This document shows positions 18,039-60,689 of a stretch of 64,000 nt of DNA, piece after piece. Below the pieces are notes generated by a model, which did not search any database, was not told where the DNA came from, and saw only the letters and a list, made by a program, of their open reading frames with translations. Made by a program: the position numbers and the translations under genes. The DNA comes from a virus: IMG/VR virus record IMGVR_UViG_3300029319_000006, positions 32,001-96,000 of that record, one strand, 5' to 3'. How positions within the stretch are numbered: the first letter of the stretch is position 1; each line of letters begins with the position of its first letter.

Positions 18039-19376
18039 TTAAGTTAGAATATTATCTACTCTGAATATTCTGTAGTACTGATTGGTTCTGTTGGATGCAA
18101 GACCATTAGATGGTGCATTACCTACAAATGGATTTGACGCCATGCCATATCTAGTTTTGAAACCGATTCTTGGCTGGAAGTCATTCTCCCCAACAGCACG
18201 TACCATTGTTAGTGGTACATATGGACAATAGAACACACCTGCGTCATATGGGTTTGTACCCTTATATCCAACGTTGATGTAATCTGTGTCTGCATATGGA
18301 TCAATGTAAACTCTGATCCTACCGTTTAAAACACCTGCAAATGTATTGCCTGTATCGTCTACGTTTAAGTTAGTGGACATATTTGGAGCATAATCCAACA
18401 TTCCACCAGCAGCAAGAGCTGTAGCTACGTCAGAAGAACATACGACGAAGTTACCTTTACCACGTCTTGTTTCTTTTGCAATTACGTTAGCTTCTCTATC
18501 TAACTGAACACCTAGACCTTTAAACTTTTCAGCTGACCAACGACCATCTGCATCTGAACTTACGTTAAAGATACCATTGGTAGTTACGTTAGCTTGTCTA
18601 GCACCGATTTTAGCTTGTGCGTTAATTGTACGTACAACCTCACGGTTAATTTCAGCTAAGATTTCAGTTGACAAGATGTTTGACAACTCTGTCTCAGCGT
18701 CAAGACCATGAATTGCTTTCAAGTCTTGTGCTAGTTCTAGAGTGTATTCAGCTTTGAGAGCTCTTGACTTTGCAGTCACTGTTGATTTCTCAATGGTGAA
18801 TCCCATCTCAGCAATTGATTCTCCAGTGTTACCTAGAGCTTCAGCTTCTGCTGTTGAATATGCGTCAGCTTGTACAGGAACATAAGTTGTATCTGAGTCA
18901 ACAATACTTGCGTCAACGTCAGTATCACTTACTCCAGCAAGACCTGATGGTCCTTTTGAATCTGTTGAAGCTGTAGATGAATCTCCAGAATAATTCTGAA
19001 GTGCTTCACTAAACAATGCTTCATCATCTGTTGCTGCACCAGCTTTTGAAGTCTTATATCTTGACTTCATTGCGAAGATAAGACCAGTAGGTCCAGTCAT
19101 TGGCTGAACACCACAAATGTCATATGCCATTAAATTTGGCATAGCTCTTCTTACTAATGAGATTAAAATTGGATTCCAGTTTGCTACAGAAGCAGAATTG
19201 GTACCAGCAATCTCTTGGAGTTGCTCTCCTTGCTCTCTCAAAGCCTTCTCAGTATTCTCAAGAACAACTGCTGTAACTGAACGCTTTACAGCGCTATCAA
19301 TTTTACCAGCTGCTTCTTCATCTAATACTGGAGACCACTTTTCAACGAGCCTATCGTATGAATTAGATTTTTCCAT
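18039..19376 (-). CDS. gp23: Major capsid protein gp23
   Basis: LVRRAMP, GVQPMTGPTGLIFAM, AKSRALKAEY..ELAQDLKAIHGLDAE, YCPYVPL, FQPRIGFKTRYG. Confidence 0.99.
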   Translation of the reverse strand: MEKSNSYDRLVEKWSPVLDEEAAGKIDSAVKRSVTAVVLENTEKALREQGEQLQEIAGTNSASVANWNPILISLVRRAMPNLMAYDICGVQPMTGPTGLIFAMKSRYKTSKAGAATDDEALFSEALQNYSGDSSTASTDSKGPSGLAGVSDTDVDASIVDSDTTYVPVQADAYSTAEAEALGNTGESIAEMGFTIEKSTVTAKSRALKAEYTLELAQDLKAIHGLDAETELSNILSTEILAEINREVVRTINAQAKIGARQANVTTNGIFNVSSDADGRWSAEKFKGLGVQLDREANVIAKETRRGKGNFVVCSSDVATALAAGGMLDYAPNMSTNLNVDDTGNTFAGVLNGRIRVYIDPYADTDYINVGYKGTNPYDAGVFYCPYVPLTMVRAVGENDFQPRIGFKTRYGMASNPFVGNAPSNGLASNRTNQYYRIFRVDNILT

Positions 19377-19391
19377 TACATGGATCTCCTA

Positions 19392-20360
19392 TTACTTTTT
19401 AGTTTGTCTAATTGCAGAAATGTATGATTCCATTGCTGGACTCACTTCGACTTGAGCTGTTGCTTCTTCGTCATCCACATTTTCTGCGATTGGTGATGTA
19501 GCAGTTTTTTTCTTGAAATATGATTCTTTCAAAGTATCCACTTTTGATTTGAATGCTTCTTCAGACTCAAATTCAACACTTTCTGCTAGTTTTTTTAGCT
19601 TTTCTACTTGAGTTTCAGCTAGATCCTTAGATGCTTCACGAATAACTTCGTTTCGCTGGTAAGTTTCTACTCTTGCGCTCATGTCTATAGCTTTTTGAAC
19701 TGCGTCGTTGTACTTTTCTTCAAGTTCTACGTTCGCAGTTGCTAGTTCGTCTACTAGGTCAACCTTGGTATCAGGAACTTCTACATAAGACTCTTGGAAA
19801 AGATCCTTCATCTTATTCATAAAGTTTTCTGCAATCTCAGTTCTTAGACCTGATTGTATTGCAATTTTATTTTCCTCTACCCATTGTTCAACCACATAGT
19901 TGAGGTAGCTGTCTACTTTTTCGACAAGTTCTTCTTTAGTTTTAGATACTTCCTCATCAAGCTGAGTTTTGTATTCTTCTTCTAAACGATTTATCTCATC
20001 TGCAAGTTTTGACTTTACCGCTGCTTCAAAGATTACTGCTGTTTTAGCTTTAAACTCATCACTGAGTGTAGCTTCAGATTCGACTAAGGCATTTAAGTCT
20101 TCACTAAAATCTCCATCTATTTCTACATCTTCGGCTTTCATGCCTTTGCCACCAGCAGGTGCTTTTGACATTGGTTCGCTTTGGACCTTATCACCTTTTC
20201 TGTGAGGCGCTTTCTTTTTAGGATCAGCGGCCTTATCAGCGTCGGCAATAGACTGGTCTTCAGCATTTTTTGGATCGTGAGCCTCTTCAACTTCATTCTC
20301 GTTGAGCTCAACATCCTGTGCTTCGGCTTCGACTTTTTCAGTCTTTACTTCTTCAGTCAT
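19392..20360 (-). CDS. gp22: Prohead core scaffold gp22
   Basis: Acidic coiled coil, FK.K...IFEAAV, VDSYLNYVVE.W; between gp21 and gp23. Confidence 0.92.
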   Translation of the reverse strand: MTEEVKTEKVEAEAQDVELNENEVEEAHDPKNAEDQSIADADKAADPKKKAPHRKGDKVQSEPMSKAPAGGKGMKAEDVEIDGDFSEDLNALVESEATLSDEFKAKTAVIFEAAVKSKLADEINRLEEEYKTQLDEEVSKTKEELVEKVDSYLNYVVEQWVEENKIAIQSGLRTEIAENFMNKMKDLFQESYVEVPDTKVDLVDELATANVELEEKYNDAVQKAIDMSARVETYQRNEVIREASKDLAETQVEKLKKLAESVEFESEEAFKSKVDTLKESYFKKKTATSPIAENVDDEEATAQVEVSPAMESYISAIRQTKK

Positions 20361-20369
20361 GTTTGACTC

Positions 20370-21029
20370 CTATAAGTTAGATTTCATTAACGAGAGGAAA
20401 TTTTTAAACTCACGAACTTGCGTTTCATATAGATCCGCACGTGGAGCACGTTTAATTTCAGTCTCTATTTTTTCAATTTCTTGAGGTTCAAGGATGCCAT
20501 TATTCCAAACCCAGTCTACACCTTCCATTACTCCATTTACAAAGGCTTGCGGTGCTGATGGATCTTGTACGATATCAACCGTATTAAGCATAAAGTCATC
20601 TTTGACGTACATAGTACCGTTTCTTTCCTCAAGGCTACCCATACCACGAGTTGAGACACCTAGTTGAACACCACCATCAAGAAGACCAGTTACGATCTTT
20701 CCCATAGGAGTTTCCAATATGCGTGCCTTCCCCATAACATTATTTCCATCCATTTGGAGGTCAGTAATCTTATGGGATACTTTATCCAAGTTAACAGTTG
20801 GTCCATCAGGGTGATTCAATTCACCGACCGCTCTGTCCTTGGAAACTTGTTCACGGACATATTTGTTCACTGCAGATTCCATAACTGCTTTGGGATATAT
20901 TCGTCCGTTTCTATTCTTTGATTCTGCCATAGCAAAGACACCCTCAATCATATGAGATTTAGAGCCATCTTCTGCTTTTTCAACAATGCATTTTACATCA
21001 TTTTCTCTATATTCAGTTATAAGTTTCAT
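20370..21029 (-). CDS. gp21: Prohead protease gp21
   Basis: MKLITE, NRNGRIY, GELNHP, GVSTRGMGS, DIVQDPSAP. Confidence 0.97.
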   Translation of the reverse strand: MKLITEYRENDVKCIVEKAEDGSKSHMIEGVFAMAESKNRNGRIYPKAVMESAVNKYVREQVSKDRAVGELNHPDGPTVNLDKVSHKITDLQMDGNNVMGKARILETPMGKIVTGLLDGGVQLGVSTRGMGSLEERNGTMYVKDDFMLNTVDIVQDPSAPQAFVNGVMEGVDWVWNNGILEPQEIEKIETEIKRAPRADLYETQVREFKNFLSLMKSNL

Positions 21030-21307: not shown

Positions 21308-21309
21308 TT

Positions 21310-21528: not shown

Positions 21529-21540
21529 TCTTTTAACTTT

Positions 21541-21548
21541 TATTTATA
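21541..21548 (-). promoter_or_regulatory. T4-type late promoter TATAAATA
   Basis: Exact motif upstream of the prohead gene block. Confidence 0.8.
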
Positions 21549-21559
21549 CAAATAGATTT

Positions 21560-27745: not shown

Positions 27746-28543
27746 TTAACTACTATCAAAATCGAATAGAGAAGCATAATCAGCAGAATCATTAAATCCA
27801 AAATCACTATCTGCGGATACACTAAATGGTTGTGGTCTTGTTCTAAACTTAGCTACTTGTAAATCAGAATCTCTTAGTCCTCTATTTATTTCAAACATAT
27901 TGGTTTCTGCTGTTCTAATAACTTTAGATTCAGCAATTGGACCATAAAAATTTATTCTCATATCAAATGTTAGAGTATATATTATTGTTCTTCTTTGTTC
28001 TAATGATCCTTCAAAATCATCAGCAAAATCTACTCCTGTTAAAGCTATTGGAATATCTTCTTTTACATTTGGAAAATCAGTACCAAAAGGTTTTATTGTT
28101 ACTGAATATTGAGGATTAAAAAATGGTAAAATTTGTTCAACAATTTGTAAACAATCATCTTGACTTTTTGCATATATACTTAATTGAAATCCAATATTAT
28201 ATGGAACAAAAGTATAAAATTTATTTCTTAGAGCACTTGTTGAACCTGATTGTTGAAAAGTATTAGTTTTTTGTAATTGTCTTCCTGCATCATAATTAAT
28301 TGATATAATCTCAAACGACATACGTGGTAGTTTTATAGCTACTTTTGTATTAGTATCTAAATCTGGATTTTCTCTGATTCTTTCTAAATATTTTCTACTT
28401 GGTGCATAAGATAAAGGAACTTTTACTTGAGAAATAACTTTCCCAGCACTATCTTTTCTTAGAACATAAAGATTGTTGAAAAGAGTACCAAATACTGCTA
28501 CACTTTTTCTTAATCTCTGATGATAAAACCATGTTCCAAACAT
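27746..28543 (-). CDS. gp15: Tail sheath stabiliser/terminator gp15
   Basis: FYH..LRK....FGTLFN, KVPLSYAP, LPRMSF, QIVEQILPFF.P. Confidence 0.93.
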   Translation of the reverse strand: MFGTWFYHQRLRKSVAVFGTLFNNLYVLRKDSAGKVISQVKVPLSYAPSRKYLERIRENPDLDTNTKVAIKLPRMSFEIISINYDAGRQLQKTNTFQQSGSTSALRNKFYTFVPYNIGFQLSIYAKSQDDCLQIVEQILPFFNPQYSVTIKPFGTDFPNVKEDIPIALTGVDFADDFEGSLEQRRTIIYTLTFDMRINFYGPIAESKVIRTAETNMFEINRGLRDSDLQVAKFRTRPQPFSVSADSDFGFNDSADYASLFDFDSS

Positions 28544-30604: not shown

Positions 30605-31909
30605 TTAATTTAATAATGAACCAGATGCATCATAAACATTTATTCTATAGTATGATCCGTGTTGACCATCTAATAAATCAGCATCTAATCCATTTCCAGC
30701 TCCGTCTCTTGTTTTTATATCTGTGTATATTGTTGCTCCATATAATGAAGTTAATTCTGCTGAATCTATTTTTATATCACCAGAAGATAAACCTATTCCA
30801 GTTCCTCCTGTAAAATGTGCTCTAACTTCACTTGCAGAAGGTCCTGTATATGTTATAACTCCTGTTCCAGAATTGTAAGCCAGAGATCCATCTCCACCAG
30901 CATCTGTAATTGTTATAGCACCTCTAGCTCTAGAATTTAAAAAGTATAAATTACTTCCTTCTGATAAATCACTTGTACTAAAGGATGTAAGTCCTATTCT
31001 AGCATTTAATGTAGATCCACTTGTAGTTCCTAATGCCATTGTAGCATTTGCAGAATCAAAAGTTAATGATGAAACACCAGCAATAGGAACAACACCAATA
31101 CTATCAATAAATCCACTTGCATCTACTTTTATTTTAGGAACAAATGAATTACTTCCATAAGATCCAGCTACTCCAGATTGAGATGTTCTTGCTAGATATT
31201 TTACAGATAATTTACCATTTGCACTATCTTTAGATGTTATAACTCCAGATGTTGGAAGTGTTACTGATGTAGCTCCTGTTGTAGTAAGAGCTATAGAATT
31301 TCCTACTGTAGTAGAAAAACCATCTCCAAATGTTACATCTCCATAAATTTTAAAAGCTCTATCAGCATTCAAAACATCTATTGTAATAGTTCTATCAGCA
31401 GATAAATTATTACCCACAACAGCATTATCTGATACAAATCTAGTTTCAAAGTTTGTATTAGAAACATCTCTTAATCCAAATGTAGTAATATCTGTTATTG
31501 ATCCAGCTTCGATTGATGGAGTTGTTAATGTTGCTGAAGTTAATGTTTTATTAGTAAGAGTTTCAATACCATTAATAGTAGCAAAATTAGCACCTGATAA
31601 AGCAGCATTGAATTGACCTATAGTACCAGATAATGTATTATTAGTTAAGTTAAAAGTTTTATTAGTTAGTGTTTGAGACGAAGTTAGTGTAGGAATCTCA
31701 CTTGAATCTATTCTAATAATAACATCTTGATTCCTTGCTCCAGTCGGAACAATTTCCATACCTCCACCGTCAGTCAATGCTCTGACATAGTTACCACTAG
31801 TATTAGAATCTAGTTTTATTATTTGACTTTGTACAATGTTTATAGTAGTATTAGAGTCTAGCCCTGCAGCTAGAGATGTACTTAAAAATGTACTAAGATT
31901 TTTTACCAT
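30605..31909 (-). CDS. Virion fibre-like structural protein
   Basis: QTLTNKT repeats, DLSEGSNLYF/DAGGDGS module, GLDADLLDG motif. Confidence 0.7.
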   Translation of the reverse strand: MVKNLSTFLSTSLAAGLDSNTTINIVQSQIIKLDSNTSGNYVRALTDGGGMEIVPTGARNQDVIIRIDSSEIPTLTSSQTLTNKTFNLTNNTLSGTIGQFNAALSGANFATINGIETLTNKTLTSATLTTPSIEAGSITDITTFGLRDVSNTNFETRFVSDNAVVGNNLSADRTITIDVLNADRAFKIYGDVTFGDGFSTTVGNSIALTTTGATSVTLPTSGVITSKDSANGKLSVKYLARTSQSGVAGSYGSNSFVPKIKVDASGFIDSIGVVPIAGVSSLTFDSANATMALGTTSGSTLNARIGLTSFSTSDLSEGSNLYFLNSRARGAITITDAGGDGSLAYNSGTGVITYTGPSASEVRAHFTGGTGIGLSSGDIKIDSAELTSLYGATIYTDIKTRDGAGNGLDADLLDGQHGSYYRINVYDASGSLLN

Positions 31910-34855
31910 TTATGCTTGTGCCTCTGACCATTTAAGTTCGATCGTTCCGTCACCTCGACCCGCCAAGAAGAAAATATTAATAGCTAAAATATCAGGTCCA
32001 TCTGGATACTTAAAGTCTCCTCCTAATGGTGCTCCATCCATCTGTTTGATAGAAGATAGATCTTGCACAGTAGTAAGTGTTTCAAGATATCCTGTAGCTG
32101 TTGAAAATGAAAATATAGTTTCTCCAGGTAATGCAAAAGATCCTGTAGTCCAATTTATATCGTTTCTGTTAGCATATTGAGCGAATGAAGGTTGTCCTCC
32201 ATCTGCTTCAGAAACTAGACTTCTCCATGTTGCATCTCCCCAGTTTTTAGGATTCAAAATCCCTTGACAAATACAGTCACCTTGTGAGAATCCACGACCC
32301 ATAGCAACTGTAATTTCTTGCAATAACATCTGACTTCTATTAAGTAAGTCTTGTGCTCCTAATCTTCCAACTGAAGCGTTAGATACTGATGGAGCTAATC
32401 TAATAGCAAATGCAGTTCTTGGAGTTGTTGTAACTCGGAAGTCATTAACCGAATGGTTAAATAAATATCCTCGGTCAAATTGGAATCCTCCATCCATAAC
32501 TAAAGCTGAACCCCAATGTGATAATGTAGGTGAACAAGTGTTTGATATTTCAGCAACACCAGTATTTACTGAATGAGCTGCAACAGCACCAGCACTTACT
32601 GTAACATTATTACCTTGTAAAAATTGAGTTAGAGTAGCAGCTCTTGCAACTCCTGTAAAGTTACCTGGACCATCTGTTGCACTTCTTCCCGTATAAGTCA
32701 TTATTTCATTATCAATTAATAAAGTTCCATTGTCACTAAACTCATTTAATTCTTTTACAGGAATAGTTGATGCTGCACTATCAATAGTAGAAGTTAAAAA
32801 GGTTATTGGACTATCATTATCGATTGCATATCTTACTGGTAAGTTACCTGATCTCATAAATGCTTCAGTATTTAAGTTATTGTTTCTAATTCTATGACAA
32901 TATACCCATTTACCATCAGATCCTCTAACCATAAAGTGAACAAAACCAGCTCCATACCATGAATATTCAATTCCAATCATTTGCATTCTACTTGTATTGA
33001 AAGTGTATCCAGATGGACCAGTACCATCTAATTTATCTAAGTTCCATTTAGATTGAGGTACTCTTATTTGTGTTATTTTTTGTCCTCTTACTCCAGATGC
33101 AGTAATACCTCTATAATCTGGTGACATATTAAATGATGTATCACTTTCTACATTAGTTACAAAATGAGTCATACCTTTTATAGATATTTTAGATCCAGCT
33201 CTTAATTGTTCAGTAAATCTTGTATTGGATCCAACAACATTATTACTATTTTGTGTAACAGCTATTGTACCAGTAATATTAAATGTAGAAGTTCTTTGTA
33301 CAACAAATATTTGTTGTCCATCAAATTCCCAATATAATCCATTTTGATCATCAAACATTCCAGCTCTAACAGCAGCACCTACCCAATTTTTTACTTGAAC
33401 AGTTGCAATTTCAGAAAGTTGGCAAGTAGTATCTCCTAATGTTCCTGTTGCAATAACAGTAAATGTATAGTCATCTGTAATACTATTAACTGTATAAGTT
33501 CCAGAATATCCAGATGTTTCTAATCCAACTAATTCAACAGAAGCTCCAGCTTGTAACCCGTGATCAATATCATCAGTTTTTATAGTTATTGTAGCACCTG
33601 GAGATGTTCCACTTGCTGTAACAGCTTGTAAATCATATACAGGAGCAAATAATGTACCTGAAGAAAATAAGAATCCTTTACCAGATTGATATCTAAAATA
33701 TCGTTTTGTCTGACGAGTAACAGAAGCAGCATATGTTGGTGTCTTGGTTGATAATATAACACCACCATCTGAAGGTCTATGAAGAATAGTAGCATTACTA
33801 ATAGCAAATACTTGAGCATTTGCAGGACTTGTCACCGCAGCACCAGGTCTTGCATCATATTTCATTTGATTAGGTTCAGGGGATGCTTTCATAAAGAAAG
33901 GTCCTGATGCTTTATCTTTATTAGTACCAGTTCCCATTATAACGTGTAATGGTGTTCCAGGTACAAGTCCATGAGGTTTTGCAAAATGTAGTGTTATTTC
34001 CGACGGGTCCGCTCCGTCTGACGTAACGCTAGTTGGAGTAGGTAATGCAGCATTACTATACAAAGCTCCTTTTCTTACTAATGTTTCTTCTGTTTTTAAA
34101 CTATCACCATCTGAAGAGCCAACAACTCCTCTTGCATAATATTTTAATGTATGAGAGTTGGGGACAGATTCAATAATGTAACTTCCATCTGCTCTTGAAA
34201 ATCCAGATGTTCCAGCATTTAAGCTAGATACGTTTACAACATCTCCAACACTTAATCCATGAGCAGTGTTTATAGATCCATTTGCTGAATCTTTAAAAGT
34301 AACTGTTATAAGACTATTGGTTGTATTATCAGTTTGGAAATCAGTTATAATAGTATTTACTGAAAGATCAACACCAGGTAAATCATAGGTTGATGGATAT
34401 CCTTTTACTGATCCAAAACCAGCCCACTTAGTAGGTTGTAATCCATATTCAAAGTCAGCATCAATAAGTGACTCACCTTGAGATATTCTCATTCTTTCAA
34501 TAGCATCAGTACCAAAATCCCATGGTCTCATTTTCTGACCATAATCATATTTGTCTTCCGCAAAAATTTGAAGATCATCACTAGCACTCATTGCAGATGT
34601 ATCAGATTGTAAAATTAATCTAGTAAATCCATCGTGGGCAGTAGTAACAGTAGGCCAATTTGTACTTGTACTTGTAAAAAAGTTAGCTACGGTACCAGCA
34701 AAAGTGGTATCAGCAAAATTGTAAATAATTATATTATCTGTTACATTTGTTATGAGTAAAAATTTATCTAATGTGTATCGCCCAGGAACTTCAATATATC
34801 CTACACCTGCTGCACCTGGTACAAACACATAATCTCTTAGTAAATTCTTTGCCAT
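31910..34855 (-). CDS. Large virion structural protein
   Basis: 981 aa beta-rich, repeated HGL..G modules, SLIDADFEYGLQPTKW, RYQSGKG, YSWYGAG. Confidence 0.7.
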   Translation of the reverse strand: MAKNLLRDYVFVPGAAGVGYIEVPGRYTLDKFLLITNVTDNIIIYNFADTTFAGTVANFFTSTSTNWPTVTTAHDGFTRLILQSDTSAMSASDDLQIFAEDKYDYGQKMRPWDFGTDAIERMRISQGESLIDADFEYGLQPTKWAGFGSVKGYPSTYDLPGVDLSVNTIITDFQTDNTTNSLITVTFKDSANGSINTAHGLSVGDVVNVSSLNAGTSGFSRADGSYIIESVPNSHTLKYYARGVVGSSDGDSLKTEETLVRKGALYSNAALPTPTSVTSDGADPSEITLHFAKPHGLVPGTPLHVIMGTGTNKDKASGPFFMKASPEPNQMKYDARPGAAVTSPANAQVFAISNATILHRPSDGGVILSTKTPTYAASVTRQTKRYFRYQSGKGFLFSSGTLFAPVYDLQAVTASGTSPGATITIKTDDIDHGLQAGASVELVGLETSGYSGTYTVNSITDDYTFTVIATGTLGDTTCQLSEIATVQVKNWVGAAVRAGMFDDQNGLYWEFDGQQIFVVQRTSTFNITGTIAVTQNSNNVVGSNTRFTEQLRAGSKISIKGMTHFVTNVESDTSFNMSPDYRGITASGVRGQKITQIRVPQSKWNLDKLDGTGPSGYTFNTSRMQMIGIEYSWYGAGFVHFMVRGSDGKWVYCHRIRNNNLNTEAFMRSGNLPVRYAIDNDSPITFLTSTIDSAASTIPVKELNEFSDNGTLLIDNEIMTYTGRSATDGPGNFTGVARAATLTQFLQGNNVTVSAGAVAAHSVNTGVAEISNTCSPTLSHWGSALVMDGGFQFDRGYLFNHSVNDFRVTTTPRTAFAIRLAPSVSNASVGRLGAQDLLNRSQMLLQEITVAMGRGFSQGDCICQGILNPKNWGDATWRSLVSEADGGQPSFAQYANRNDINWTTGSFALPGETIFSFSTATGYLETLTTVQDLSSIKQMDGAPLGGDFKYPDGPDILAINIFFLAGRGDGTIELKWSEAQA

Positions 34856-34862
34856 TTTCTTC

Positions 34863-36830
34863 CTATCCTAATGCGACTGAGAACGCTATTGTCTGAGCTC
34901 TTGTTGAAAAATTTGAAGCATCTGCAGAATCTCCTTTATCCCCTTTCGGTCCTCTTTGTCCTATTGATGTATAAATTTGCCAATTACTATTTATATAGAT
35001 GAATTCAATAATACTTTGACCTAAATCTAGAACAAAATTTTCTGCAAAACCTTCAATTGTAGAACCATTTCTATTGACAGTAACTGAATTTGTTGAAAAA
35101 TTAGCAACGTCAATTAATTTTACATAATCACCTGTTTGTGGATTTGCTGGTAAGGTAACAGTAAAACCTCCTCCAGAAGTATTTAATGCATATCTACCTG
35201 CATTTACAGCTGTAAAACCTGAAGTATATACTACGTAATTAGATGAAAAAGCTGCAAAGTCTGAATCAAAACCTAGATATGTTCCTCTTAATTTACCAAA
35301 ATTCCAAGTAGCTAATTCCCAATCAGTACCACCAACATTAATTGTTTGATCCGTTGGTGTACCACTATCAATACCATCCTGAACTAGATTACTAAATGCA
35401 TACCACTCACCATTATCAGCATCTCTAAAAAATCCAGCTCTTCTAATTGTTGTTCCACCATCTTTTGAATATCTACCAACAATACCAATATCAACTGTAT
35501 CTGCACTATTACTATCTGCAACTTTAATTAAGGAGTTAGTAACAGAAAGATCTGCTTGAGCATTTGATGTTTGAGTACCTGATACTGTTAAGTTTCCATA
35601 AACAACCACATCATTATTTACTGACATAGCATTAAATTGTACTGAGTCAGTAGTTCCTACTGGTTGTCCAATTGAAATTTGTCCAGCTCCACTTAAAGTA
35701 ACACCAGTACCTTGAGAAAAATGTGATCTTACTTCTGCTGGAGAAGGACCAACGTATGAAATAACTCCTGTAGAATTATTATACGTCATAGAACCATCAC
35801 CACCACCATCACTAACAGATATTGCTCTTTTAGCAGCAGAATCTGCTCTTGATGTTGTATAATATAAATTTGATCCTTCGGTTACATCTGTTGTAAATAT
35901 ACTTGCATTAATGTAAGAATCAACTCTAGTATCAAGATAATATAAATTAGTACCTTCAGGTAAATCTGTAGTTGATCTAGTTCCTAATGATGCAGCAGAT
36001 AATGTACCTTGTAGTTCTCCAGCTAATGCTTTTACATTGCTTGCTGCAATAATATCTTCACCACGTATATTCTTTCCAGCACCTATTCCTCCTACAGTAA
36101 CAATGGAACCTGATGTTTGAGTTGCTGCTTCTGTTGCATCATTTGTAGATATTCTTCCAGTATTACTAATTGTAATTAAATCATCAGCAGCAGAAGGAGG
36201 TGATAAACTAACTGGATTTTTTCCAACATTTCTTATAATATTAATTTGTGAATTAGTACCATCTAATCCAATAACTAATTTATTGCTTGCACTGTTTCCT
36301 CTTGTTCCTATAATATGATTTTGTTGATTCTTAACTCCTAATACTAAACCTGATCCATCTAAAGAGTCTTTAGATATAAAGGACAACAGAGCTTGTGTAC
36401 TATCTCCAAGATTCGTATCCATATTAAAAGATACACCACCAAACTGTTGACCAAACATAGGAGTAGAGTCTATAATAGGATCTACAATAGTTTTATTGGT
36501 AAGAGTTTGTGATCTTGTAGTTCTAATGTAAGTAGGAGTGAGAGGATCTAAGAAAGCACTATCTACTTTTACAGTAATAGCAGAATCAACTCTAGCTGTT
36601 GTATAATATAATTTAGTATTATGTTCAGTTAAATCAGCTGTATTTTTAAGAGAAAAATCACTATCGAAACCACCATATGCTCCTGTTAAACCTCCAGTAA
36701 TATTAGCTGTACCAGAAACAGTCATGTTACCAGTAACTACTGAATTTCCTCCAACAGTAAGATTGGTACCTATAGTAGCACTATCTCCTACAAATAAACC
36801 TTTTCTTACTTTAAAATCTTTAACTGCCAT
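34863..36830 (-). CDS. Tail-fibre-like structural protein
   Basis: DFKVRKGL N-terminus, EG.NLYY repeats, TVTLPANP..GD domain, short collagen GQRGPKGDKGD. Confidence 0.75.
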   Translation of the reverse strand: MAVKDFKVRKGLFVGDSATIGTNLTVGGNSVVTGNMTVSGTANITGGLTGAYGGFDSDFSLKNTADLTEHNTKLYYTTARVDSAITVKVDSAFLDPLTPTYIRTTRSQTLTNKTIVDPIIDSTPMFGQQFGGVSFNMDTNLGDSTQALLSFISKDSLDGSGLVLGVKNQQNHIIGTRGNSASNKLVIGLDGTNSQINIIRNVGKNPVSLSPPSAADDLITISNTGRISTNDATEAATQTSGSIVTVGGIGAGKNIRGEDIIAASNVKALAGELQGTLSAASLGTRSTTDLPEGTNLYYLDTRVDSYINASIFTTDVTEGSNLYYTTSRADSAAKRAISVSDGGGDGSMTYNNSTGVISYVGPSPAEVRSHFSQGTGVTLSGAGQISIGQPVGTTDSVQFNAMSVNNDVVVYGNLTVSGTQTSNAQADLSVTNSLIKVADSNSADTVDIGIVGRYSKDGGTTIRRAGFFRDADNGEWYAFSNLVQDGIDSGTPTDQTINVGGTDWELATWNFGKLRGTYLGFDSDFAAFSSNYVVYTSGFTAVNAGRYALNTSGGGFTVTLPANPQTGDYVKLIDVANFSTNSVTVNRNGSTIEGFAENFVLDLGQSIIEFIYINSNWQIYTSIGQRGPKGDKGDSADASNFSTRAQTIAFSVALG

Positions 36831-40545: not shown

Positions 40546-40553
40546 TATTTATA
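40546..40553 (-). promoter_or_regulatory. T4-type late promoter TATAAATA
   Basis: Exact motif upstream of 40510. Confidence 0.75.
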
Positions 40554-41896: not shown

Positions 41897-41897
41897 T

Positions 41898-42704
41898 TTA
41901 CAAAATTCCTTTCTCGCTATACTTATCCATTCCAGAAGAATAATGATGTATTATAGGATGTTTAGAAGCATAAACATTTGGTTGAGTCCAGGGTAATCCA
42001 AAAGAACTATAATAATTCCATCTATAATTTTCTTCAAAAAATTTCCATTTGAGTTCTTTATATTTTGGTGAATGCCACAACAACCACCATAAAGTAAGTT
42101 GATCCCAAATCCAAAAACTTTTAGGAACTTCTTGTATCTCTATTGGTAATTCTATTGCAGCTCTTTGTTTTAAATATACATTATACCAATCCATCATAAA
42201 TTGTTTTACTAATGGATTAGTATTATTATATAAACAAACTCCTCCACAATGAGTAAGATGTTGAGGATTAGAACCAGTATATCCATTATCTAATGTATTT
42301 TCCCCCCATGACCATTCAGCAAAATGTCTAGCACCCTCTTTAGTAAGATTAACAAATCTCATATCATAGTTTTGTATTTGATCAAAAACTGTACATATAT
42401 CTTCATGGACTACTTCCATATCCACATCTAAGTACATAGTAATATCATATGGAGAATTTGCCATACCCCACATTTTTTCTCTGTTAGTACTTCCAGGTGT
42501 TGGTAAAATTTTATCGTAAGGAGTAAATAAAGTTTTTAAATTTTCATCTTCTAAAAAAAGTTTTTCTGTAAACAGAGTAATTTTAGCATCTGGCATATAA
42601 TCTAAAATAGTTTCTGCTAAAAAATATCCAGCTTTTAAAAAACTTTCAAATTTTGTAGCTACAAATACAAATCCTTTACTTAGATTCTTCTGATTGTTCA
42701 CCAT
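41898..42704 (-). CDS. GT-A fold glycosyltransferase (GT8-like)
   Basis: GFVFVA, SPYD.T.YLDVD, GGV..Y, WDQ..LW, RWN, IIHHY. Confidence 0.78.
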   Translation of the reverse strand: MVNNQKNLSKGFVFVATKFESFLKAGYFLAETILDYMPDAKITLFTEKLFLEDENLKTLFTPYDKILPTPGSTNREKMWGMANSPYDITMYLDVDMEVVHEDICTVFDQIQNYDMRFVNLTKEGARHFAEWSWGENTLDNGYTGSNPQHLTHCGGVCLYNNTNPLVKQFMMDWYNVYLKQRAAIELPIEIQEVPKSFWIWDQLTLWWLLWHSPKYKELKWKFFEENYRWNYYSSFGLPWTQPNVYASKHPIIHHYSSGMDKYSEKGIL

Positions 42705-43134
42705 TCATATTTTCCATTAATAATATAGTTGCATAAGCATTCAATTCAATAGTGTTTTTTGCTTTTCTTATTTTACTTTTTAATTTTCTATTATCAGATG
42801 CTTTTATTTCAGGTATCTCAAAAGCTGCTAATTTGTAATTAAAAAGTTCTTCAAGACGTTTAGTTTCCATAAGCTCTTTGTCTTTTTTTATTTTAGCTTC
42901 ACGTTGTTGCTTATGCCTTTTTAATCTTTCTTCTGTAAAAGCATCAATCTGTGATAATGAATTTTGTTTTAAGATTTCTTCATAATCAGTAGATATAACA
43001 CCTTTTTCATCATATTTGGAAACTTTTGCAACGCTAGTAGAAAACGATCCATCATCATGTGTAATATTAAGACGGACTGTCAATCTATCTTTCGCTGCAT
43101 TTTCCCAAAATGGATGTTTCCATTCTTTCTTCAT
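42676..43134 (-). CDS. Hypothetical protein
   Basis: 152 aa, AGGAG RBS, lies between Tyr-repeat gene and glycosyltransferase. Confidence 0.7.
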   Translation of the reverse strand: MKKEWKHPFWENAAKDRLTVRLNITHDDGSFSTSVAKVSKYDEKGVISTDYEEILKQNSLSQIDAFTEERLKRHKQQREAKIKKDKELMETKRLEELFNYKLAAFEIPEIKASDNRKLKSKIRKAKNTIELNAYATILLMENMNGEQSEESK

Positions 43135-49182: not shown

Positions 49183-51081
49183 TTATTTCACATCAACACC
49201 AGCTAAAAATCCATAGTAACTAGTACCACCATTATACGATACAAAAGTAAAAACAGTAACAGCATTTGCAGCTGATGCTATTGAAGGAGCAGTTCCTCCT
49301 GGCCAATCTACAGTTGCAGGCCAAGTTACTCCATTTGCTCCTGTTCCATCTTGTATAATTACCACAGTAAAAGCAGTAACCCCACCAACACCTGGAGAGG
49401 GCACTGATGGATTACTGAATGTAAAAGTAGTTCCTCCACTTTGAACTGTATGTACAAAGAAATTTGAATTATTTAGATCTAAGTCTTGCGTACTATTACT
49501 GCCAAGAGTAGATGTAACTACTGTTTCATGGTAAGATCCTGCTGTAACTCTTGAGGATAAATTAACATAGCCACTGGCATTAGCTGTTACTACTTTACTT
49601 GCTTCAGATGTACCTAGTGAGGTTATATCATTATAGTTAAGTTCTGCACCAGTAGCAGTAACAACCGTTCCTGCATATCTAAGATTTCCTGTTGGTATAG
49701 CAACAACTCCTGTACCAGCACACTGTAATTCCATATCAACATTTTGACCAGATTGAGTATTTGTTGATAATATTACAGTATCAGATCCTACACCAGTAGT
49801 TTGGATCTTTAAAAAATTATCTGCAGTTCCTGTTTTTGAAAAAACAATTCTAGGATTTCCATCACTATCAACAATTTTATCTTGTTCATGCATTGCAACA
49901 TTAACTAATCGTTTATTAGTTAAAGTATCAGAACTTGTTGGTGTTACATATCCAGCAGAAGCATGATTTCCATAACTAAAAGCTGTATCCCAATTTGAAC
50001 TATTATCAGGTATAACAGCATAAACTCCTGCATTATTTTTTTTCAATATACCATTATCAAATGAATCAAAATCAGCATCTAAGAGAGCGGTTGTAGATGT
50101 TGTATAAGCAGAATTCCAATTGGTAGAATTATCACTCACAATAGAATATGATCCAGCTCCACTTCTTTTCATTAAACCATTAGTACTAAAATCAGCATCC
50201 AATATAGAAGTTAATGAAGTTGTATAAGCAGAATTCCAATTTGAGAATGTAGACGGAATACCACCGACAGATAATCCTGATAATCTTGCTGAATCAGTTT
50301 CTCTTATAATATCCAAAGGACCTGTTTTTAGTCCAGCTTGCCATCTATCAGTATTTTCATTAAAATATACTACCGCACTATCAGTACCAGGTCTATCAAC
50401 TGCTAATCCTGGTCTATTTGCATTGTTTACAGCAATACCATCATTTACTACAACATAAGGATCAGCAACACGTTGATTACCAACAATAGTAACACCGCTT
50501 AAAGTAGCACTCGCTGCAACTAAACCACCACTTGCTCTTATTTGACCTGAGAAGACTGCACTATCATTAACTGTCAATGATCCACCTATAGTAGTACTAT
50601 CTAAAGTGGTTATTCCTTGTACATCTAAATTTCCTGTTATTGTACCACTATCTGCTAATAATCGATCAGCATTTAAAGTTCCATCAAAAAATCCATGTCT
50701 CCATTCTTTAGTACTATCTCCAATATCAAAACTATTATCTACGTCAGGAATAATATTTGAAGTAACATCTGCACTAAAAGAAACTGTATCTGTGTCAGCA
50801 TCACCTATTCTTAAGGCTCCTCCAACAACAACATCTCCTTGCATTCTTGCATCACCAACTACTCTTAATTTACCTCCAACTGTAACATTACCAGCAAATG
50901 CAGGTGAACTATCAGCAGCAGTAAATTTTCCTGCAACTTCATTTACAGCTCCTGTAATATTTTTGGAAGTCGTTACTAGAGTAGATACATCACCAACTGA
51001 ATCAATTAATTGATTGTGTCTTAATCTTTGTAAATTAAGATTGTCTGTAATATTAGTATGTGGTATCTTAGAATTAGGCAT
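49183..51081 (-). CDS. Tail fibre protein
   Basis: NWNSAY repeats, TLTNK, C-terminal TFTFSN...QDGTG...WP..V.WPGG.AP domain. Confidence 0.72.
   Translation of the reverse strand: MPNSKIPHTNITDNLNLQRLRHNQLIDSVGDVSTLVTTSKNITGAVNEVAGKFTAADSSPAFAGNVTVGGKLRVVGDARMQGDVVVGGALRIGDADTDTVSFSADVTSNIIPDVDNSFDIGDSTKEWRHGFFDGTLNADRLLADSGTITGNLDVQGITTLDSTTIGGSLTVNDSAVFSGQIRASGGLVAASATLSGVTIVGNQRVADPYVVVNDGIAVNNANRPGLAVDRPGTDSAVVYFNENTDRWQAGLKTGPLDIIRETDSARLSGLSVGGIPSTFSNWNSAYTTSLTSILDADFSTNGLMKRSGAGSYSIVSDNSTNWNSAYTTSTTALLDADFDSFDNGILKKNNAGVYAVIPDNSSNWDTAFSYGNHASAGYVTPTSSDTLTNKRLVNVAMHEQDKIVDSDGNPRIVFSKTGTADNFLKIQTTGVGSDTVILSTNTQSGQNVDMELQCAGTGVVAIPTGNLRYAGTVVTATGAELNYNDITSLGTSEASKVVTANASGYVNLSSRVTAGSYHETVVTSTLGSNSTQDLDLNNSNFFVHTVQSGGTTFTFSNPSVPSPGVGGVTAFTVVIIQDGTGANGVTWPATVDWPGGTAPSIASAANAVTVFTFVSYNGGTSYYGFLAGVDVK
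50099..50241. repeat. Intragenic 120-bp-period repeat
   Basis: GTTGTATAAGCAGAATTCCAATT identical at 50099-50121 and 50219-50241; encodes NWNSAYTT; degenerate third unit NWDTAF. Confidence 0.85.
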
Positions 51082-57174: not shown

Positions 57175-58569
57175 TCAAAGTTGAACGACGAGTTTTATAT
57201 CGTCTGTACTAGCAGTCGTTCGAGTTTGTGCAGAAGCATTATTAATAAAGAATATTTCACCTGAATATCTGTCTACATCAGGTCTTATGTTATGTTGTCC
57301 TGTTGCAATTGTTCTTGTACTACCCAATCCTTCAACAGTAATTGTTTCTCCTGATCTAAATGGAGTAAATCCTGATGCTTCATCTTGATGATACCATATT
57401 GTAGAATCTTGAATAAAATCTACCCAAGCCTTAGCATTACTGTCTCCTGTTATTTCAACATCATTTGCAAAAGCAAAAGAACTAGAAATTGGTGATGTAA
57501 CTCTAATTTTCTTTAAACAGTTTCCTGCTGTACCTTGAAACTTATTTCTAGATGCACTGTCTACTAATGGATTTTTCCATAATGCTATTTGTCTATAATC
57601 ATTATCAACTATCCAATTACCAGAAACATTTCCTTCTGGTTTAATATGAAACATCATAGCTGAAGCTCTTAAATCATTTATTGGATTAGCTCCAAGACCG
57701 TTACTATCGTGAGCAAAAACTGGAACAACAGTAGCGTTAGTTCCTCCAGGTGAAGTTATTCTTATATTAGCTTGTTTATAACCAGATCCTAAAAATGGTG
57801 ATATGTCTGTGGTTCCAGAACTTTCACCAACTTCTACAGCTGTTATAACACCAGATCCTACAACAGCGTATGCTTTGGCTCCATTTCCATCACCTACTAC
57901 AGTCAAAGAAGTAGTTGCACTGTCATATCCAGATCCACCATTAGTTACTCTATATCCTAAGATTTGGCCAGACACAGCAGCATTTTGAATTGTAAACTGA
58001 GCAAATCCAGGATCAGTTGCTGAAGCAGAATCAACTTTCTTTACAGGCATAAAATTAGATGTAGTAAAAAAGTTTGTATCAGCAGTAGAAATAGAATACA
58101 TAAATTTCCAGATATATCCATCTGCTTCAATTGGTAATGATACATTAGTATGATCTGGTTTAACAGTAGAAACTTGGTTGTTACCTAAAGAATCTTTACC
58201 CACTCTTAAACATACGTATACATTATTTTCTGCTGTTTTTACATAATAAGATGTAGCTGGATGTCCTGTAGAATTATCATTATATTGTGCATATTGTGTA
58301 TTAGTTGTCCAATCTTTGATAGGTACCACATGAGAAAATGCTTCAATAGCTTTTACAGACTGTAAATTATATCTAAACAATCTAGTTTCTCTATCTGTAA
58401 CATTTGGTGTTGGTGCAACATCTGTATTTGCTATAGGATCCCATTGTTGTGATCTACCAACTGCTATATAGTAATTATTATTAGAATCACCAAGTTTTGT
58501 ACCCGTCGCTTCATCAAACAATTGACTTAGAAATGTTCTTTTAATTTTATCTGTAATAATTGCTGTCAT
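57175..58569 (-). CDS. gp8: Baseplate wedge gp8
   Basis: M.AIIT, YI..GR..W, VYVCL, DGYIWKFMY, DYRQI, SGEI.FI.N, DDIKLVVQL. Confidence 0.88.
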   Translation of the reverse strand: MTAIITDKIKRTFLSQLFDEATGTKLGDSNNNYYIAVGRSQQWDPIANTDVAPTPNVTDRETRLFRYNLQSVKAIEAFSHVVPIKDWTTNTQYAQYNDNSTGHPATSYYVKTAENNVYVCLRVGKDSLGNNQVSTVKPDHTNVSLPIEADGYIWKFMYSISTADTNFFTTSNFMPVKKVDSASATDPGFAQFTIQNAAVSGQILGYRVTNGGSGYDSATTSLTVVGDGNGAKAYAVVGSGVITAVEVGESSGTTDISPFLGSGYKQANIRITSPGGTNATVVPVFAHDSNGLGANPINDLRASAMMFHIKPEGNVSGNWIVDNDYRQIALWKNPLVDSASRNKFQGTAGNCLKKIRVTSPISSSFAFANDVEITGDSNAKAWVDFIQDSTIWYHQDEASGFTPFRSGETITVEGLGSTRTIATGQHNIRPDVDRYSGEIFFINNASAQTRTTASTDDIKLVVQL

Positions 58570-58581
58570 AATTGTTTCCTA

Positions 58582-59580
58582 TTAAGATACTGTATGTCCT
58601 TCACCACCCATCACATACCAGTTTGTTCCGTCCCAGATAAGTGTTGCTGTATCGAATTGTTGAAATGTTACTCCTGTTGATCCTTGAGGGAATTGAGCTG
58701 CAGTGATACTTAATACTAAATCACCAGCACCTGATTGTCTTATTACATGCAAGTTAAGAGTTTTACTTGCAGGACCATTAGGTAATGTTACTGTACCAGC
58801 ACCACCTTGTAATAATAATAAACTTTTTGTGAGTGATGCAGTATCACCATTTGATAATGTTTCTGAAGATAATCCATATTGATTTATGTTTACAATTCCT
58901 GTACCTTTGGAAGAAATATCTAAACCTATATTAGCGTCTGTGCTTCCAATAACTGATAAACTAGGTGTATTACCATTTGATACACCAGTAACTTTTATTC
59001 TATTTCTTGTGTTTCCTACATCAGTAAATGAAATAACTGGATTGCCTGTAGAATCAGAAAGATGAGTTGTAATTTTAGGAGAGGATATGGTAGGTGAAGC
59101 TAAAGATTTATTTGTTAATGTTTGATTATGAGCTTCCATTACCATTACATCATTACTACCTAAAAGAGGTAAAACAACATTTCTATTTGCTGCCAGATTA
59201 CTTGGTACAAAATTATAATGATGTGATGAATCTAAATCTTTTATTTTAAATCTATCAAATGTAGCACTATCTATAGATGGTTGAGTTAAAGTTTTATTAG
59301 TTAAAGTTTGAGATGCTGTATTTAATGTTACTTCACCAGATGCATTAGGAAAATCAATATTTCTTTCTGCAGTTGGATTTACATGACCAATCTTTGTTCT
59401 AAAAGATGCTCCAATGAAATCTACACCACTATCAGTAAGAGCAGATACACCAGCACCTCCTCCGCCAACTAATGTGTAAAGTTCAGTAAAATTTTCATTA
59501 ATTTTAGTACCAGCAGTTCTTAACGTATCGCCTGTACCATCATTAGCTGAAGTACCAGTATTAATTGTTTGTCTTGCCAT
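58582..59580 (-). CDS. Baseplate/fibre connector with gp9/gp10-type N-terminus
   Basis: RQ.INTG..ANDGTGDTLR..G.KINENF.ELY; QTLTNK repeats. Confidence 0.8.
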   Translation of the reverse strand: MARQTINTGTSANDGTGDTLRTAGTKINENFTELYTLVGGGGAGVSALTDSGVDFIGASFRTKIGHVNPTAERNIDFPNASGEVTLNTASQTLTNKTLTQPSIDSATFDRFKIKDLDSSHHYNFVPSNLAANRNVVLPLLGSNDVMVMEAHNQTLTNKSLASPTISSPKITTHLSDSTGNPVISFTDVGNTRNRIKVTGVSNGNTPSLSVIGSTDANIGLDISSKGTGIVNINQYGLSSETLSNGDTASLTKSLLLLQGGAGTVTLPNGPASKTLNLHVIRQSGAGDLVLSITAAQFPQGSTGVTFQQFDTATLIWDGTNWYVMGGEGHTVS

Positions 59581-59604
59581 GTTTTATCTCTTTTTTCTTA
59601 ACAT

Positions 59605-59612
59605 TATTTATA
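59605..59612 (-). promoter_or_regulatory. T4-type late promoter TATAAATA
   Basis: Exact motif upstream of 59580. Confidence 0.78.
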
Positions 59613-59621
59613 TGTGTAAAA

Positions 59622-60689
59622 TCAAGGTCCTGTTGGATAATGAGCAGAATCTGCACTATTTGAAGAAGAATCAAACAATGTCCTATATCTATGCTCATCA
59701 AATCTTGGAAGTAGAATAACACCTGATGGTGAATCTCTATCCATTCTAATTGCTGTTGCAGTTTCAGAATCATCCATTAAGAATGAATTAGGTGTAATCA
59801 GTTCTCTAAATGTTAGTGTAGCAGTACTATCCATTATAGTTGTAAGACTTCTTTCTATGTCTTTTTCTACATCTGCTCTAATCATACCAATAGTACCATC
59901 ACCTCTTTGAATAAGTGTAGTATCTACACTACCAAGTAAATTCATATTAGCTATAGTTTCTGTAGAAGTAGTAAATACTGGTTTTGATCCTGGTCCTGAT
60001 TCTCTTAATGATTGAATAACATTACCATTTACTAATTCTAAAACAATTTGAGCTGCTAGATGAGCTCCAGCTGGGTGAACAAATAATTTATAAGCATCTT
60101 CCCATTGTTGTACAGGAATTGCACTTTTTATGAGAATAGACATTACTTGAAATTGTCCATTATCAGTTAAAAACTTTTGAGATTCTGATCCTAATACACC
60201 AGCAGCAGTTTTAATTTGCTGACCTGATGAATTAACACTATCTAAATTATAATCTATAGCAGGACCTACATGAAAAATATTTTCTTTTGGATAGATTACT
60301 TGAGGATCATCATTAAAAAATCCACGGAAGAATTGTTGTATACTATATTTGGTACCTTTAGATCTATATAATTGATTTGAAAACTTTATTGCTTCTCTTT
60401 TATTTAAGAATCCTCCAAATGTAGCATTACCTAATAATAACTCATCTTCTAAAAATTTTAATAAATCTTCTGGAACTTGAGTAGCGTCTCTACTTGAATA
60501 TAAATCATGGATTTGACCAGAAGGTTTTCCAGATGAATCCATATATTCATAATATGCATCAAACAATGCTTTTAACTTAGGATAATCAATACCAAAATAC
60601 TCTGGTAGAATATTATCAACTTCTGCTCTTTGCAGATTTAATAATCTTCTATTAAGATCAGTAGTAGTTTTATCTTGTTCGTATTCCAT
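59622..60689 (-). CDS. gp7: Baseplate wedge initiator gp7-like (short)
   Basis: LPEYF..DYP, F..AYYEY, Y.SKGT..S...FFR, HPAG; follows gp6. Confidence 0.75.
   Translation of the reverse strand: MEYEQDKTTTDLNRRLLNLQRAEVDNILPEYFGIDYPKLKALFDAYYEYMDSSGKPSGQIHDLYSSRDATQVPEDLLKFLEDELLLGNATFGGFLNKREAIKFSNQLYRSKGTKYSIQQFFRGFFNDDPQVIYPKENIFHVGPAIDYNLDSVNSSGQQIKTAAGVLGSESQKFLTDNGQFQVMSILIKSAIPVQQWEDAYKLFVHPAGAHLAAQIVLELVNGNVIQSLRESGPGSKPVFTTSTETIANMNLLGSVDTTLIQRGDGTIGMIRADVEKDIERSLTTIMDSTATLTFRELITPNSFLMDDSETATAIRMDRDSPSGVILLPRFDEHRYRTLFDSSSNSADSAHYPTGP

Follow-up and report, generated by a model that had tools for sequence, protein, structure and literature searches.

The dipeptide Asp-Ser (DS), often followed by Ala, is over-represented in the tail fibres and outer baseplate proteins of a T4-like phage known from IMG/VR virus record IMGVR_UViG_3300029319_000006. 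The stretch of DNA analysed here, called the window, is 64,000 nucleotides long and covers bases 32001-96000 of this 146.8-kb phage contig. It is established that the excess is real, directional, Ser-specific, conserved and clade-specific, and that it has a characteristic sequence context; the trait marks a large uncultured clade of marine T4-like phages. Concerning its role, we infer, with some reserve, that DS is a strand-end or turn-capping motif, or an assembly motif, which was fixed in this tail apparatus. A first-pass annotation of the window had proposed another role, namely that a virion-wide DS enrichment marks serines for modification by enzymes encoded by the phage.

The excess was measured in a pooled set of 17 tail, baseplate and fibre proteins (10,211 amino acids, aa). 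Expected counts were corrected for composition, and p-values of individual proteins were obtained from shuffles (2000 for the fibre of 1101 aa). DS occurs 110 times in the pooled set, compared to 64.8 expected (z 5.6), and is the most over-represented of all dipeptides; the observed-to-expected ratio (O/E) of the tail set, 1.67, stays well above one after the composition correction. The reverse dipeptide SD is not enriched in the pooled tail proteins, and DT is among the most depleted dipeptides (42 vs. 68.5, O/E 0.62). The departure is larger for the tripeptide DSA, found 34 times when 5.0 are expected (O/E 6.8), which means that Ala follows 34 of the 110 DS; for DTA the count is 3 vs. 5.4. 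Any of the residues A, I, L, V, M or T follows DS in 56 of the 110 cases (background 38%), and DSD or DSN accounts for 23 (21%).

It is extremely improbable that these numbers result artificially from amino-acid composition, from loops in which Asp and Ser are both common, from repeat copies or from a post hoc choice of proteins. Four of the enriched proteins do share modules, the proteins were picked by eye, and in the 13 tail proteins without shared fibre modules the DS excess alone is marginal (52 vs. 40.7, p 0.05). However, DSA in these 13 proteins amounts to 15 vs. 3.0 (p 6e-7), DS ranks first in the pooled set, and the excess recurs in more than 70 independent lineages. Loop sharing was rejected because SD is unenriched and because block shuffles (6-40 residues), which keep the local composition, leave the excess in place, with z of 5.4-6.2 for DS and 10-13 for DSA, none of 1000 shuffles reaching the observed count. 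Repeat copies do not account for the excess either, since 94 different flanking contexts are represented among the 110 sites. A cause at the DNA level, with GAT-TCN codon pairs providing GANTC (CcrM) sites, was also rejected. The Ser codons at DS are AGT (52), TCT (32), TCA (25) and AGC (1), so that about half are AGT, and GANTC is at expectation genome-wide; the use of both Ser codon families, together with the GANTC count, places the signal at the protein level. A separate bias was noticed in the same 17 proteins (27746-62695), where Lys-Ser is strongly depleted (15 vs. 38.3, O/E 0.39); no such depletion is seen in Pelagibacter phage HTVC008M (1.15), Phage C48C1 (0.92) or T4 (0.88).

The proteins that carry the excess are the following (DS counts are observed vs. 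expected).

36843..40148, minus strand: 1101-aa tail fibre, the most DS-rich protein (27 vs. 10.3; DT 3 vs. 7.8).
34863..36830, minus strand: 655-aa fibre with a T4 gp9/gp10-type attachment domain (14 vs. 5.0, p 0.0005).
30605..31909, minus strand: 434-aa fibre with modules in common with the 1101-aa fibre (7 vs. 3.5, p 0.047; DT 0 vs. 3.8).
49183..51081, minus strand: 632-aa fibre-like protein with PHROG tail-fibre C-terminal matches (10 vs. 5.2, p 0.024).
57175..58569, minus strand: gp8-like baseplate wedge protein (8 vs. 2.8, p 0.0045).
58582..59580, minus strand: 332-aa outer baseplate protein (4 vs. 1.9; orthologues 4/1.6, 5/2.1 and 5/2.3).
59622..60689, minus strand: 355-aa gp7-like protein (7 vs. 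2.4, p 0.0065; five in the last 70 residues).
27746..28543, minus strand: gp15-like tail sheath stabiliser (5 vs. 1.7, p 0.017; four in the last 41 residues).

The DS counts of the first-pass annotation, both high and low, were reproduced exactly. None of the 2000 shuffles of the 1101-aa fibre reaches 27 DS (p <0.0005), and its eight DSA stand mostly in differing contexts; its PHROG matches are to tail fibre and to baseplate-wedge fibre connector. Homologues of this fibre in eight IMG/VR loci that have the same neighbouring enzyme cassette show DS at 25/8.2, 40/15.6, 29/12.8 and 33/11.1 (observed/expected), with DT down to 2/18.1. For the 655-aa fibre, 120 homologues give a DS O/E of 1.5-3.8 (median 2.4) and a DT O/E of 0.48, and a Foldseek search returned the N-terminal domains of CBA120 TSP4 and, as a further match, T4 gp9/gp10. 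Homologues of the 632-aa protein have 10/3.5, 13/7.3 and 17/10.2. The contexts 'GxI-DS-xGVV' and 'SxxF-DS-A' are common to the 434-aa and 1101-aa fibres, while the motifs NLYYTTAR, GGDGSxxY...G.FTYTGP and NAQGQI are common to the 1101-, 655- and 434-aa fibres, their IMG/VR homologues and the fibre of Roseobacter phage CRP-207. The C-terminal motif TLFD-SxNSADSAHYPF of the gp7-like protein is kept in nearly all of 13 orthologues. The C-terminus of the 655-aa fibre (34863-34960) also contains a short collagen-like G-x-y run, GPKGDKGDS, and neighbouring fibres in a Tara lineage (L055:15297-18044) carry Pfam Collagen repeats.

The enrichment is confined to the distal tail. The virion-wide scope claimed at first therefore holds for the fibres, the outer baseplate and the C-terminus of gp15, but not for the capsid, sheath, tube, portal, gp6 and several large proteins. 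Three of these proteins serve to mark the boundary.

18039..19376, minus strand: gp23 major capsid protein, not significantly enriched (4 vs. 2.3, p 0.18).
60689..62695, minus strand: gp6, a DS-poor control (2 vs. 3.7).
31910..34855, minus strand: 981-aa fibre-like protein, an unenriched internal control (4 vs. 5.7; DG 14 vs. 6.2).

Three of the four DS of gp23 lie in one variable insertion loop (residues 130-163), in which C48C1 has D-A, D-V and D-A. The sheath (3 vs. 3.1), the tube (0) and the portal (2) are likewise unenriched, and gp6 of relatives has 0-1 DS vs. about 4; the gp6 of HTVC008M has 3/4.1 and that of T4 2/3.0. Orthologues of the 981-aa protein have 3/6.7 and 1/6.2. No enrichment was found in the 829-aa (2 vs. 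5.0), 566-aa and 404-aa proteins, and the counts of the 985-aa (7 vs. 3.7, p 0.08) and 989-aa (8 vs. 6.4, p 0.30) proteins are not significant. Two fibre-like proteins are rich in DG instead of DS, at 31910-34855 (14 vs. 6.2) and 46681-49170 (11 vs. 6.0); judged by their sequences, fibre folds within one virion seem to differ in the preferred Asp-x turn. Low counts outside the tail, such as 0 in the halogenase, UvsW and gp13 and 1 in gp17, had been presented as a contrast to the fibres. The non-tail proteins of the genome have a DS O/E of 0.74 and the non-structural proteins of HTVC008M 0.73, so that the zeros in the halogenase and UvsW reflect a generic baseline, and avoidance of a sequon in enzymes was rejected.

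The large genes of the window are all on the minus strand, and the G+C content is about 31%. The gp23 protein is 65% identical to that of C48C1, 60% to HTVC008M and 59% to OM43 phage Melnitz; the hosts of the best cultured gp23 relatives are Pelagibacter, Methylophilales, or none recorded. The genes are ordered gp6, gp7-like, 332-aa, gp8, a VrlC-like protein of 989 aa, a variable block of fibres and enzymes, gp13 and gp14, which agrees with the pelagimyophage 'host recognition cluster', where fibres stand among glycosyltransferases (PMC7029224). T4-like relatives do not show an equal enrichment: the tail-set DS O/E is 1.14 in T4, 1.09 in HTVC008M, 1.03 in C48C1 and 0.81 in Prochlorococcus phage MED4-213, and the DSA O/E is 1.4 in HTVC008M and 1.3 in C48C1. 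Among 109 IMG/VR loci anchored on gp8, the trio of gp7-like, 332-aa and gp8 proteins has, in most lineages and at gp8 identities as low as 33%, a DS O/E of about 2-3.5 and a DSA O/E of 5-15, while the inner baseplate (gp6, gp5-like, gp25) is DS-poor throughout. With HTVC008M as the root of the gp8 tree, basal lineages have a normal DS content and one clade of 81 rows (support 100) contains 72 DS-rich members. One lineage, L117, is clearly DS-normal (O/E 0.5, no DSA), yet it is nested in the DS-rich clade with 96-97% support; further nested lineages with low DS are L090, L040 and L074. The placement of C48C1 is not fixed (approximately unbiased test, p 0.53), and this phage is unusable as an independent loss of the trait. 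C48C1 also encodes a 1568-aa 'baseplate wedge tail fiber connector' (L003:14306-19012) made of helical repeats of about 44 residues, with 31 DS vs. 17.7 expected, each repeat carrying DS at an apparent helix start (IRTDSEVNALIDSKI, LIDSADATAIVNSK).

Conservation within the clade indicates that the Ser of DS is under constraint. Across 12 clade families, eight of them tail families, Ser after Asp is conserved at 0.71 and other serines at 0.46 (p 3e-6); within the eight tail families no other class of serine is as well conserved (0.72 vs. 0.28-0.69), and changes from Ser to Thr are rarer at DS (6% vs. 15%). Among 105 homologues of the 655-aa fibre, 72% of DS fall in 13 conserved columns, with 439, 488 and 522 invariant, and the conserved columns lie within longer motifs, such as NLYYTTARADSDAKNAIS, GGDGSFxYDSATGTFTYTGP and NIVLADSAxDSAA. 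In gp8 orthologues with 51-74% identity, DS is kept at positions 28, 180, 337 and 376 and for the most part also at 388; HTVC008M, C48C1 and the loci L039 and L040 have no DS there and mostly unrelated residues.

The residues around DS form a coherent pattern. Hydrophobic residues exceed expectation at positions -1 (56 vs. 34) and -3 (48 vs. 34), small residues are in excess right after the Ser (55 vs. 29) and fill three positions after it, a basic residue directly after DS is nearly absent (1 vs. 9), and hydrophobic residues reappear five positions past the Ser. No such context surrounds DG, NS or DT sites, and the analysis of flanking contexts found no pattern of His, Cys or Asp-rich metal sites alongside DS. 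The context reads as the end of a strand, DS, a short loop and the next strand. AlphaFold2 models of gp8 and of the 655-aa fibre are poor (predicted local distance difference test, pLDDT, of 59 and 66), so secondary-structure context alone was taken from them. Of the 22 DS sites in these two weak models, 16 are in non-regular segments, usually directly after strands, including all eight of gp8, which are in non-regular DSSP states immediately following strands; three more are at helix N-termini and three within short helices of low confidence. Outside the clade, the CRP-207 fibre has Asx-Ser or Ser at the homologous turn (SYNSGTG, TYSAGAI) and no DS following NLYYTDARA, the C48C1 counterpart of which is NLYFTEARARG. 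DS is also found in other fibre repeats, in HTVC008M (EGxTxDSFETTL, IAEIDSG) and in C48C1 (IRTDSEVNALIDSKI).

The motif consists of a hydrophobic residue, Asp-Ser and a small residue, most often Ala, and appears to be located at the end of a beta-strand, with a short loop of small residues or a helix coming next. It is limited to the distal tail, that is, to the module-sharing fibres, the gp7-like, 332-aa and gp8 proteins and the C-terminus of gp15, and it is tentatively proposed to act there as an Asx-Ser cap in folding or subunit contacts. The motif would have been fixed at many positions during tail diversification in one clade and kept since by purifying selection, and covalent modification would be unnecessary. 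This proposal is supported by the coherent context, by the sites in non-regular segments after strands and by the fixed columns inside longer motifs. It is also supported by the Asx-Ser of CRP-207 at the same turn, by DS in the repeats of HTVC008M and C48C1, by the conservation of Ser after Asp and by the use of DG in the 981-aa protein. Finally, it agrees with the finding, described below, that no tested glycosyltransferase tracks the trait, and with the DS content of the non-virion proteins, which avoid DS no more than those of HTVC008M do.

Several observations weigh against a cap or assembly motif. A generic turn or cap propensity does not predict a 5- to 9-fold excess of DSA in non-homologous proteins, nor its absence in the orthologues of four outgroup phages. 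The settings of DS are mixed, comprising loops, helix starts and C-terminal tails and not a single micro-environment, as far as models of low confidence can tell. DS also clusters in C-terminal tails (gp15, gp7-like) that are probably flexible and would not be needed by a folding cap. That several families gained the motif in a coordinated way may point to a common partner acting in trans, and a large DSA excess in non-homologous proteins that is absent from the outgroup is what a shared trans-acting reader would produce.

The reader could be an enzyme. A possible, if unlikely, explanation is that Phi-D-S-A (Phi, hydrophobic) is the acceptor motif of a cytoplasmic Ser modification, encoded by the phage and acting on the fibres and outer baseplate; its most likely form would be O-glycosylation by soluble enzymes of the GT-A or GT25 type. 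The clade-specific excess of DS and DSA in non-homologous distal tail proteins agrees with this, as do the strong preference for Ser over Thr, the high conservation of the Ser and the clustering of DS in C-terminal tails. Candidate enzymes are also found. The first-pass annotation had placed two GT-A enzymes at 40549-42704 as plausible writers; this stretch has three genes, of which two encode putative GT-A glycosyltransferases and the third, P0002, does not. The cassette is as follows.

42676..43134, minus strand: 152-aa protein, the first cassette gene, conserved (72-77% identity in cassette loci, 36% in C48C1, 42% in G031).
41898..42704, minus strand: P0003, 268-aa putative GT-A glycosyltransferase with a DVD motif.
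41210..41896, minus strand: P0002, 228 aa, not a glycosyltransferase by its Atlas feature neighbours.
40549..41226, minus strand: P0001, 225-aa putative GT-A glycosyltransferase with a DLD motif (phrog_1962 glycosyltransferase, E 8e-11).
40163..40510, minus strand: 115-aa protein resembling fibre assembly chaperones (phrog_1084 and phrog_3304, 'L-shaped tail fiber protein assembly').

The genes P0001 and P0003 sit between fibre genes. Searches of Pfam, NCBIfam and PDB sequences gave nothing meaningful for P0001, P0002 or P0003, and none of the three has a transmembrane-like segment. P0003 has phage clusters as its Atlas neighbours, and GT8, GT77, Nucleotid_trans or Mannosyl_trans3 families are found in a minority of them. 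The neighbours of P0002 are phage clusters of 'Asp/Asn beta-hydroxylase' and 2-oxoglutarate (2OG)-Fe(II) oxygenase (score 0.92, a lead only), and the protein is probably cupin-fold or 2OG-oxygenase-like; its homologues in C48C1 (42%) and G031 (44%) are kept together with P0003. One structural neighbour of P0002 carries Phage_tail_APC. The chaperone-like gene is located beside fibres also in C48C1, HTVC008M, L055 and G031. Outside the window, at genome positions 112000-130000 (L054), there is an island of sugar genes, which by Pfam contains four GT25-like genes (two above the cut-off) and one GT8-like gene, together with two NAD epimerase/dehydratases, an FkbM methyltransferase, a radical SAM-SPASM protein and a weak Mannosyl_trans3 match; genes for inosine monophosphate dehydrogenase (IMPDH)/GMP-reductase and phosphoribosyltransferase are interleaved. 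The island is largely common with G005 and G008, and HTVC008M shares none of it.

The co-occurrence of these enzymes with the trait was followed in long or complete records, which were searched per gene family, and DS was scored on the outer baseplate.

This phage: DS rich; GT25 yes, GT8-like yes, P0003 yes, P0001 yes.
G016 (144 kb): DS rich; GT25 yes, GT8-like yes, P0003 yes, P0001 no.
G017 (142 kb, 84% complete): DS rich; GT25 yes, GT8-like no, P0003 no, P0001 weak.
G018 (98 kb): DS rich; GT25 yes, GT8-like yes, P0003 no, P0001 yes.
G021 (69 kb): DS rich; GT25 yes, GT8-like no, P0003 yes, P0001 yes.
G022 (57 kb): DS rich; GT25 yes, GT8-like yes, P0003 no, P0001 no.
G023 (55 kb): DS rich; GT25 yes, GT8-like yes, P0003 no, P0001 no.
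G019 (131 kb): DS normal; GT25 no, GT8-like no, P0003 no, P0001 no.
HTVC008M: DS normal; GT25 no, GT8-like no, P0003 no, P0001 no.
C48C1: DS normal; GT25 no, GT8-like no, P0003 yes, P0001 weak.
MED4-213: DS normal; GT25 no, GT8-like no, P0003 no, P0001 no.
G031 (44.8 kb, L117 lineage): DS normal; GT25 yes, GT8-like yes, P0003 yes, P0001 not found.

The proposed link between DS enrichment and the fibre-adjacent glycosyltransferases fails in both directions. P0003 is found in the DS-normal C48C1 and G031 and is absent from the DS-rich G017 and G018, and P0001 is absent from G016, so these two are poor candidates for the writer. In C48C1 the 152-aa gene, P0003, P0002 and the chaperone gene have the same order and 36-56% identity. 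A widespread Tara lineage has a DS-rich fibre (15 vs. 7.0) and the chaperone, with radical SAM and DegT genes upstream instead; no cassette was found within 10 kb upstream of the DS-rich fibres of L055 and L056. In G001, the closest gp8 relative, P0003 was absent from the 18 kb downstream of gp8, the syntenic position included. The 15 gp8-bearing IMG/VR records scanned for P0003 are fragments and hence uninformative. The GT8-like gene of G016 (G016:C1:71096-71768) is split by one in-frame TGA; the gene may be a pseudogene, or the TGA may be a recoded stop or stem from a sequencing error.

GT25 (PF01755) performs better, being present in seven of seven long DS-rich records and in none of four DS-normal ones before G031 was added; since the placement of C48C1 is not fixed, however, this pattern amounts to about a single evolutionary contrast. 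G031, the gp8 of which is 96% identical to that of L117, has two GT25 genes, the GT8-like gene and the cassette, yet its baseplate trio has DS at 4 vs. 6.5 and no DSA, and GT25 was rejected as a perfect co-occurring partner. The VrlC-like protein of G031 (DS 9 vs. 10.3) is much larger, at 1733 aa, which indicates a different tail architecture in the L117/G031 lineage; a fibre cut off at the contig end has DSA at 2 vs. 0.2, so the fibres of this lineage may keep the motif. None of the tested enzymes is both necessary and sufficient for the trait. Phage glycosyltransferases also act on DNA, which counts against a Ser modification. The capsid and sheath are unenriched, though a glycan shield would be expected there too, and cytoplasmic proteins of the phage show no extra avoidance of DS. 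Moreover, sugar genes are general in the host-recognition clusters of pelagimyophages, where they are interpreted as modifying lipopolysaccharide (PMC7029224). The narrower suggestion that hydrophobic-Asp-Ser-Ala is a phage-specific O-glycosylation code on the receptor-binding apparatus, written by enzymes of the GT25/GT8-rich island and not by the fibre-adjacent genes, is likewise possible but unlikely.

The partner could also be non-covalent, if the motif were read by the fibre assembly chaperone or another factor, bound a metal ion at an interface or made docking contacts between baseplate and fibres. The enriched proteins are those that join the fibres to the baseplate (gp7-like, gp8, 332-aa and the gp9/gp10-type fibres), the chaperone gene is always beside DS-rich fibres whether glycosyltransferases are present or not, and the lineage that lost baseplate DS is the one with the 1733-aa VrlC-like protein. 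Nevertheless, we consider this quite unlikely: DS is not accompanied by a metal-site pattern and, to our knowledge, T4 gp8 and gp7 need no fibre chaperones.

Modification of the virion by a general O-glycosylation system of a Bacteroidota host is hardly credible. Virions of tailed phages assemble in the cytoplasm. The Bacteroidota system acts outside it (PMC8729774) and was rejected on this mechanism, even though DSA fits the published D-(S/T)-x motif (PMC8550257, PMC8729774). Thr after Asp is depleted here, the 21% of DS followed by D or N are outside even the extended motif, and cultured relatives infect SAR11 and OM43 hosts. One fibre homologue, P0111, is on a 50-kb contig (JAOJPH010000008.1; L056, GCA_028262585.1) binned as 'Saprospiraceae bacterium', but the 22 kb of this contig that were read are phage-like throughout, with genes for fibres, collagen-like proteins, radical SAM and DegT, and it is probably a phage contig inside a metagenome-assembled genome, giving no evidence on the host. 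The host of the phage is probably not a member of the Bacteroidota.

These results touch on two open issues, how the fibres of marine myophages are built and why fibre blocks hold many sugar enzymes. The 5- to 9-fold DSA excess of the distal tail proteins is a simple, quantifiable marker by which this large uncultured clade can be recognised, and it pinpoints dozens of conserved serines. If these serines are modified, virion glycosylation would have a new acceptor code, which would bear on host range and particle survival at sea; if not, they would constitute a recurrent capping or assembly element that could help in the annotation and modelling of these fibres. Two negative results are also of note, namely that the fibre-adjacent glycosyltransferases are poor candidates for the writer and that the scarcity of DS in enzymes is a generic baseline.

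The Bacteroidota sequon, D-(S/T)-(A/I/L/V/M/T, extended S/G/F/C), resembles the motif in having Asp before a hydroxyl residue and then a small or aliphatic one, mostly Ala here (PMC8550257, PMC8729774). The likeness is of strings only, because that system takes Thr as well as Ser and works on exported proteins outside the cytoplasm (PMC8550257, PMC8729774), whereas here Thr is depleted and the proteins are cytoplasmic virion parts. A parallel in gene arrangement, with glycosyltransferase genes beside structural genes, is found in mycobacteriophages, where glycosylation of the virion is phage-encoded and targets the capsid and tail tube. As there, a modification would take place in the cytoplasm on Ser-rich stretches, including C-terminal tails, but the capsid and tube of the present phage are unenriched in DS. 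Soluble enzymes modify many serines on repetitive beta-rich surface proteins in the heptosylation of AIDA-I/TibA and in serine-rich repeat proteins; we know of no DS rule for these enzymes, and they belong to families other than those of the candidates here. The pelagimyophage host recognition cluster, a variable block from VrlC to gp14 with fibres among glycosyltransferases, GT8 being the commonest, has the same architecture as the fibre block of this phage (Zaragoza-Solas et al. 2020, PMC7029224). That study takes the glycosyltransferases of the cluster as modifying host lipopolysaccharide and describes no DS or DSA bias, and HTVC008M, the cultured pelagimyophage with such a cluster, lacks the bias. 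The fibre repeat modules known from CRP-207 and C48C1 (e.g., TDDLTEGSTNLYFT...RA) are similar in that many DS of this clade occupy fixed module positions, where CRP-207 and C48C1 have RS, TA, NS or RG; the bias described here differs in that it reaches baseplate proteins outside the modules.

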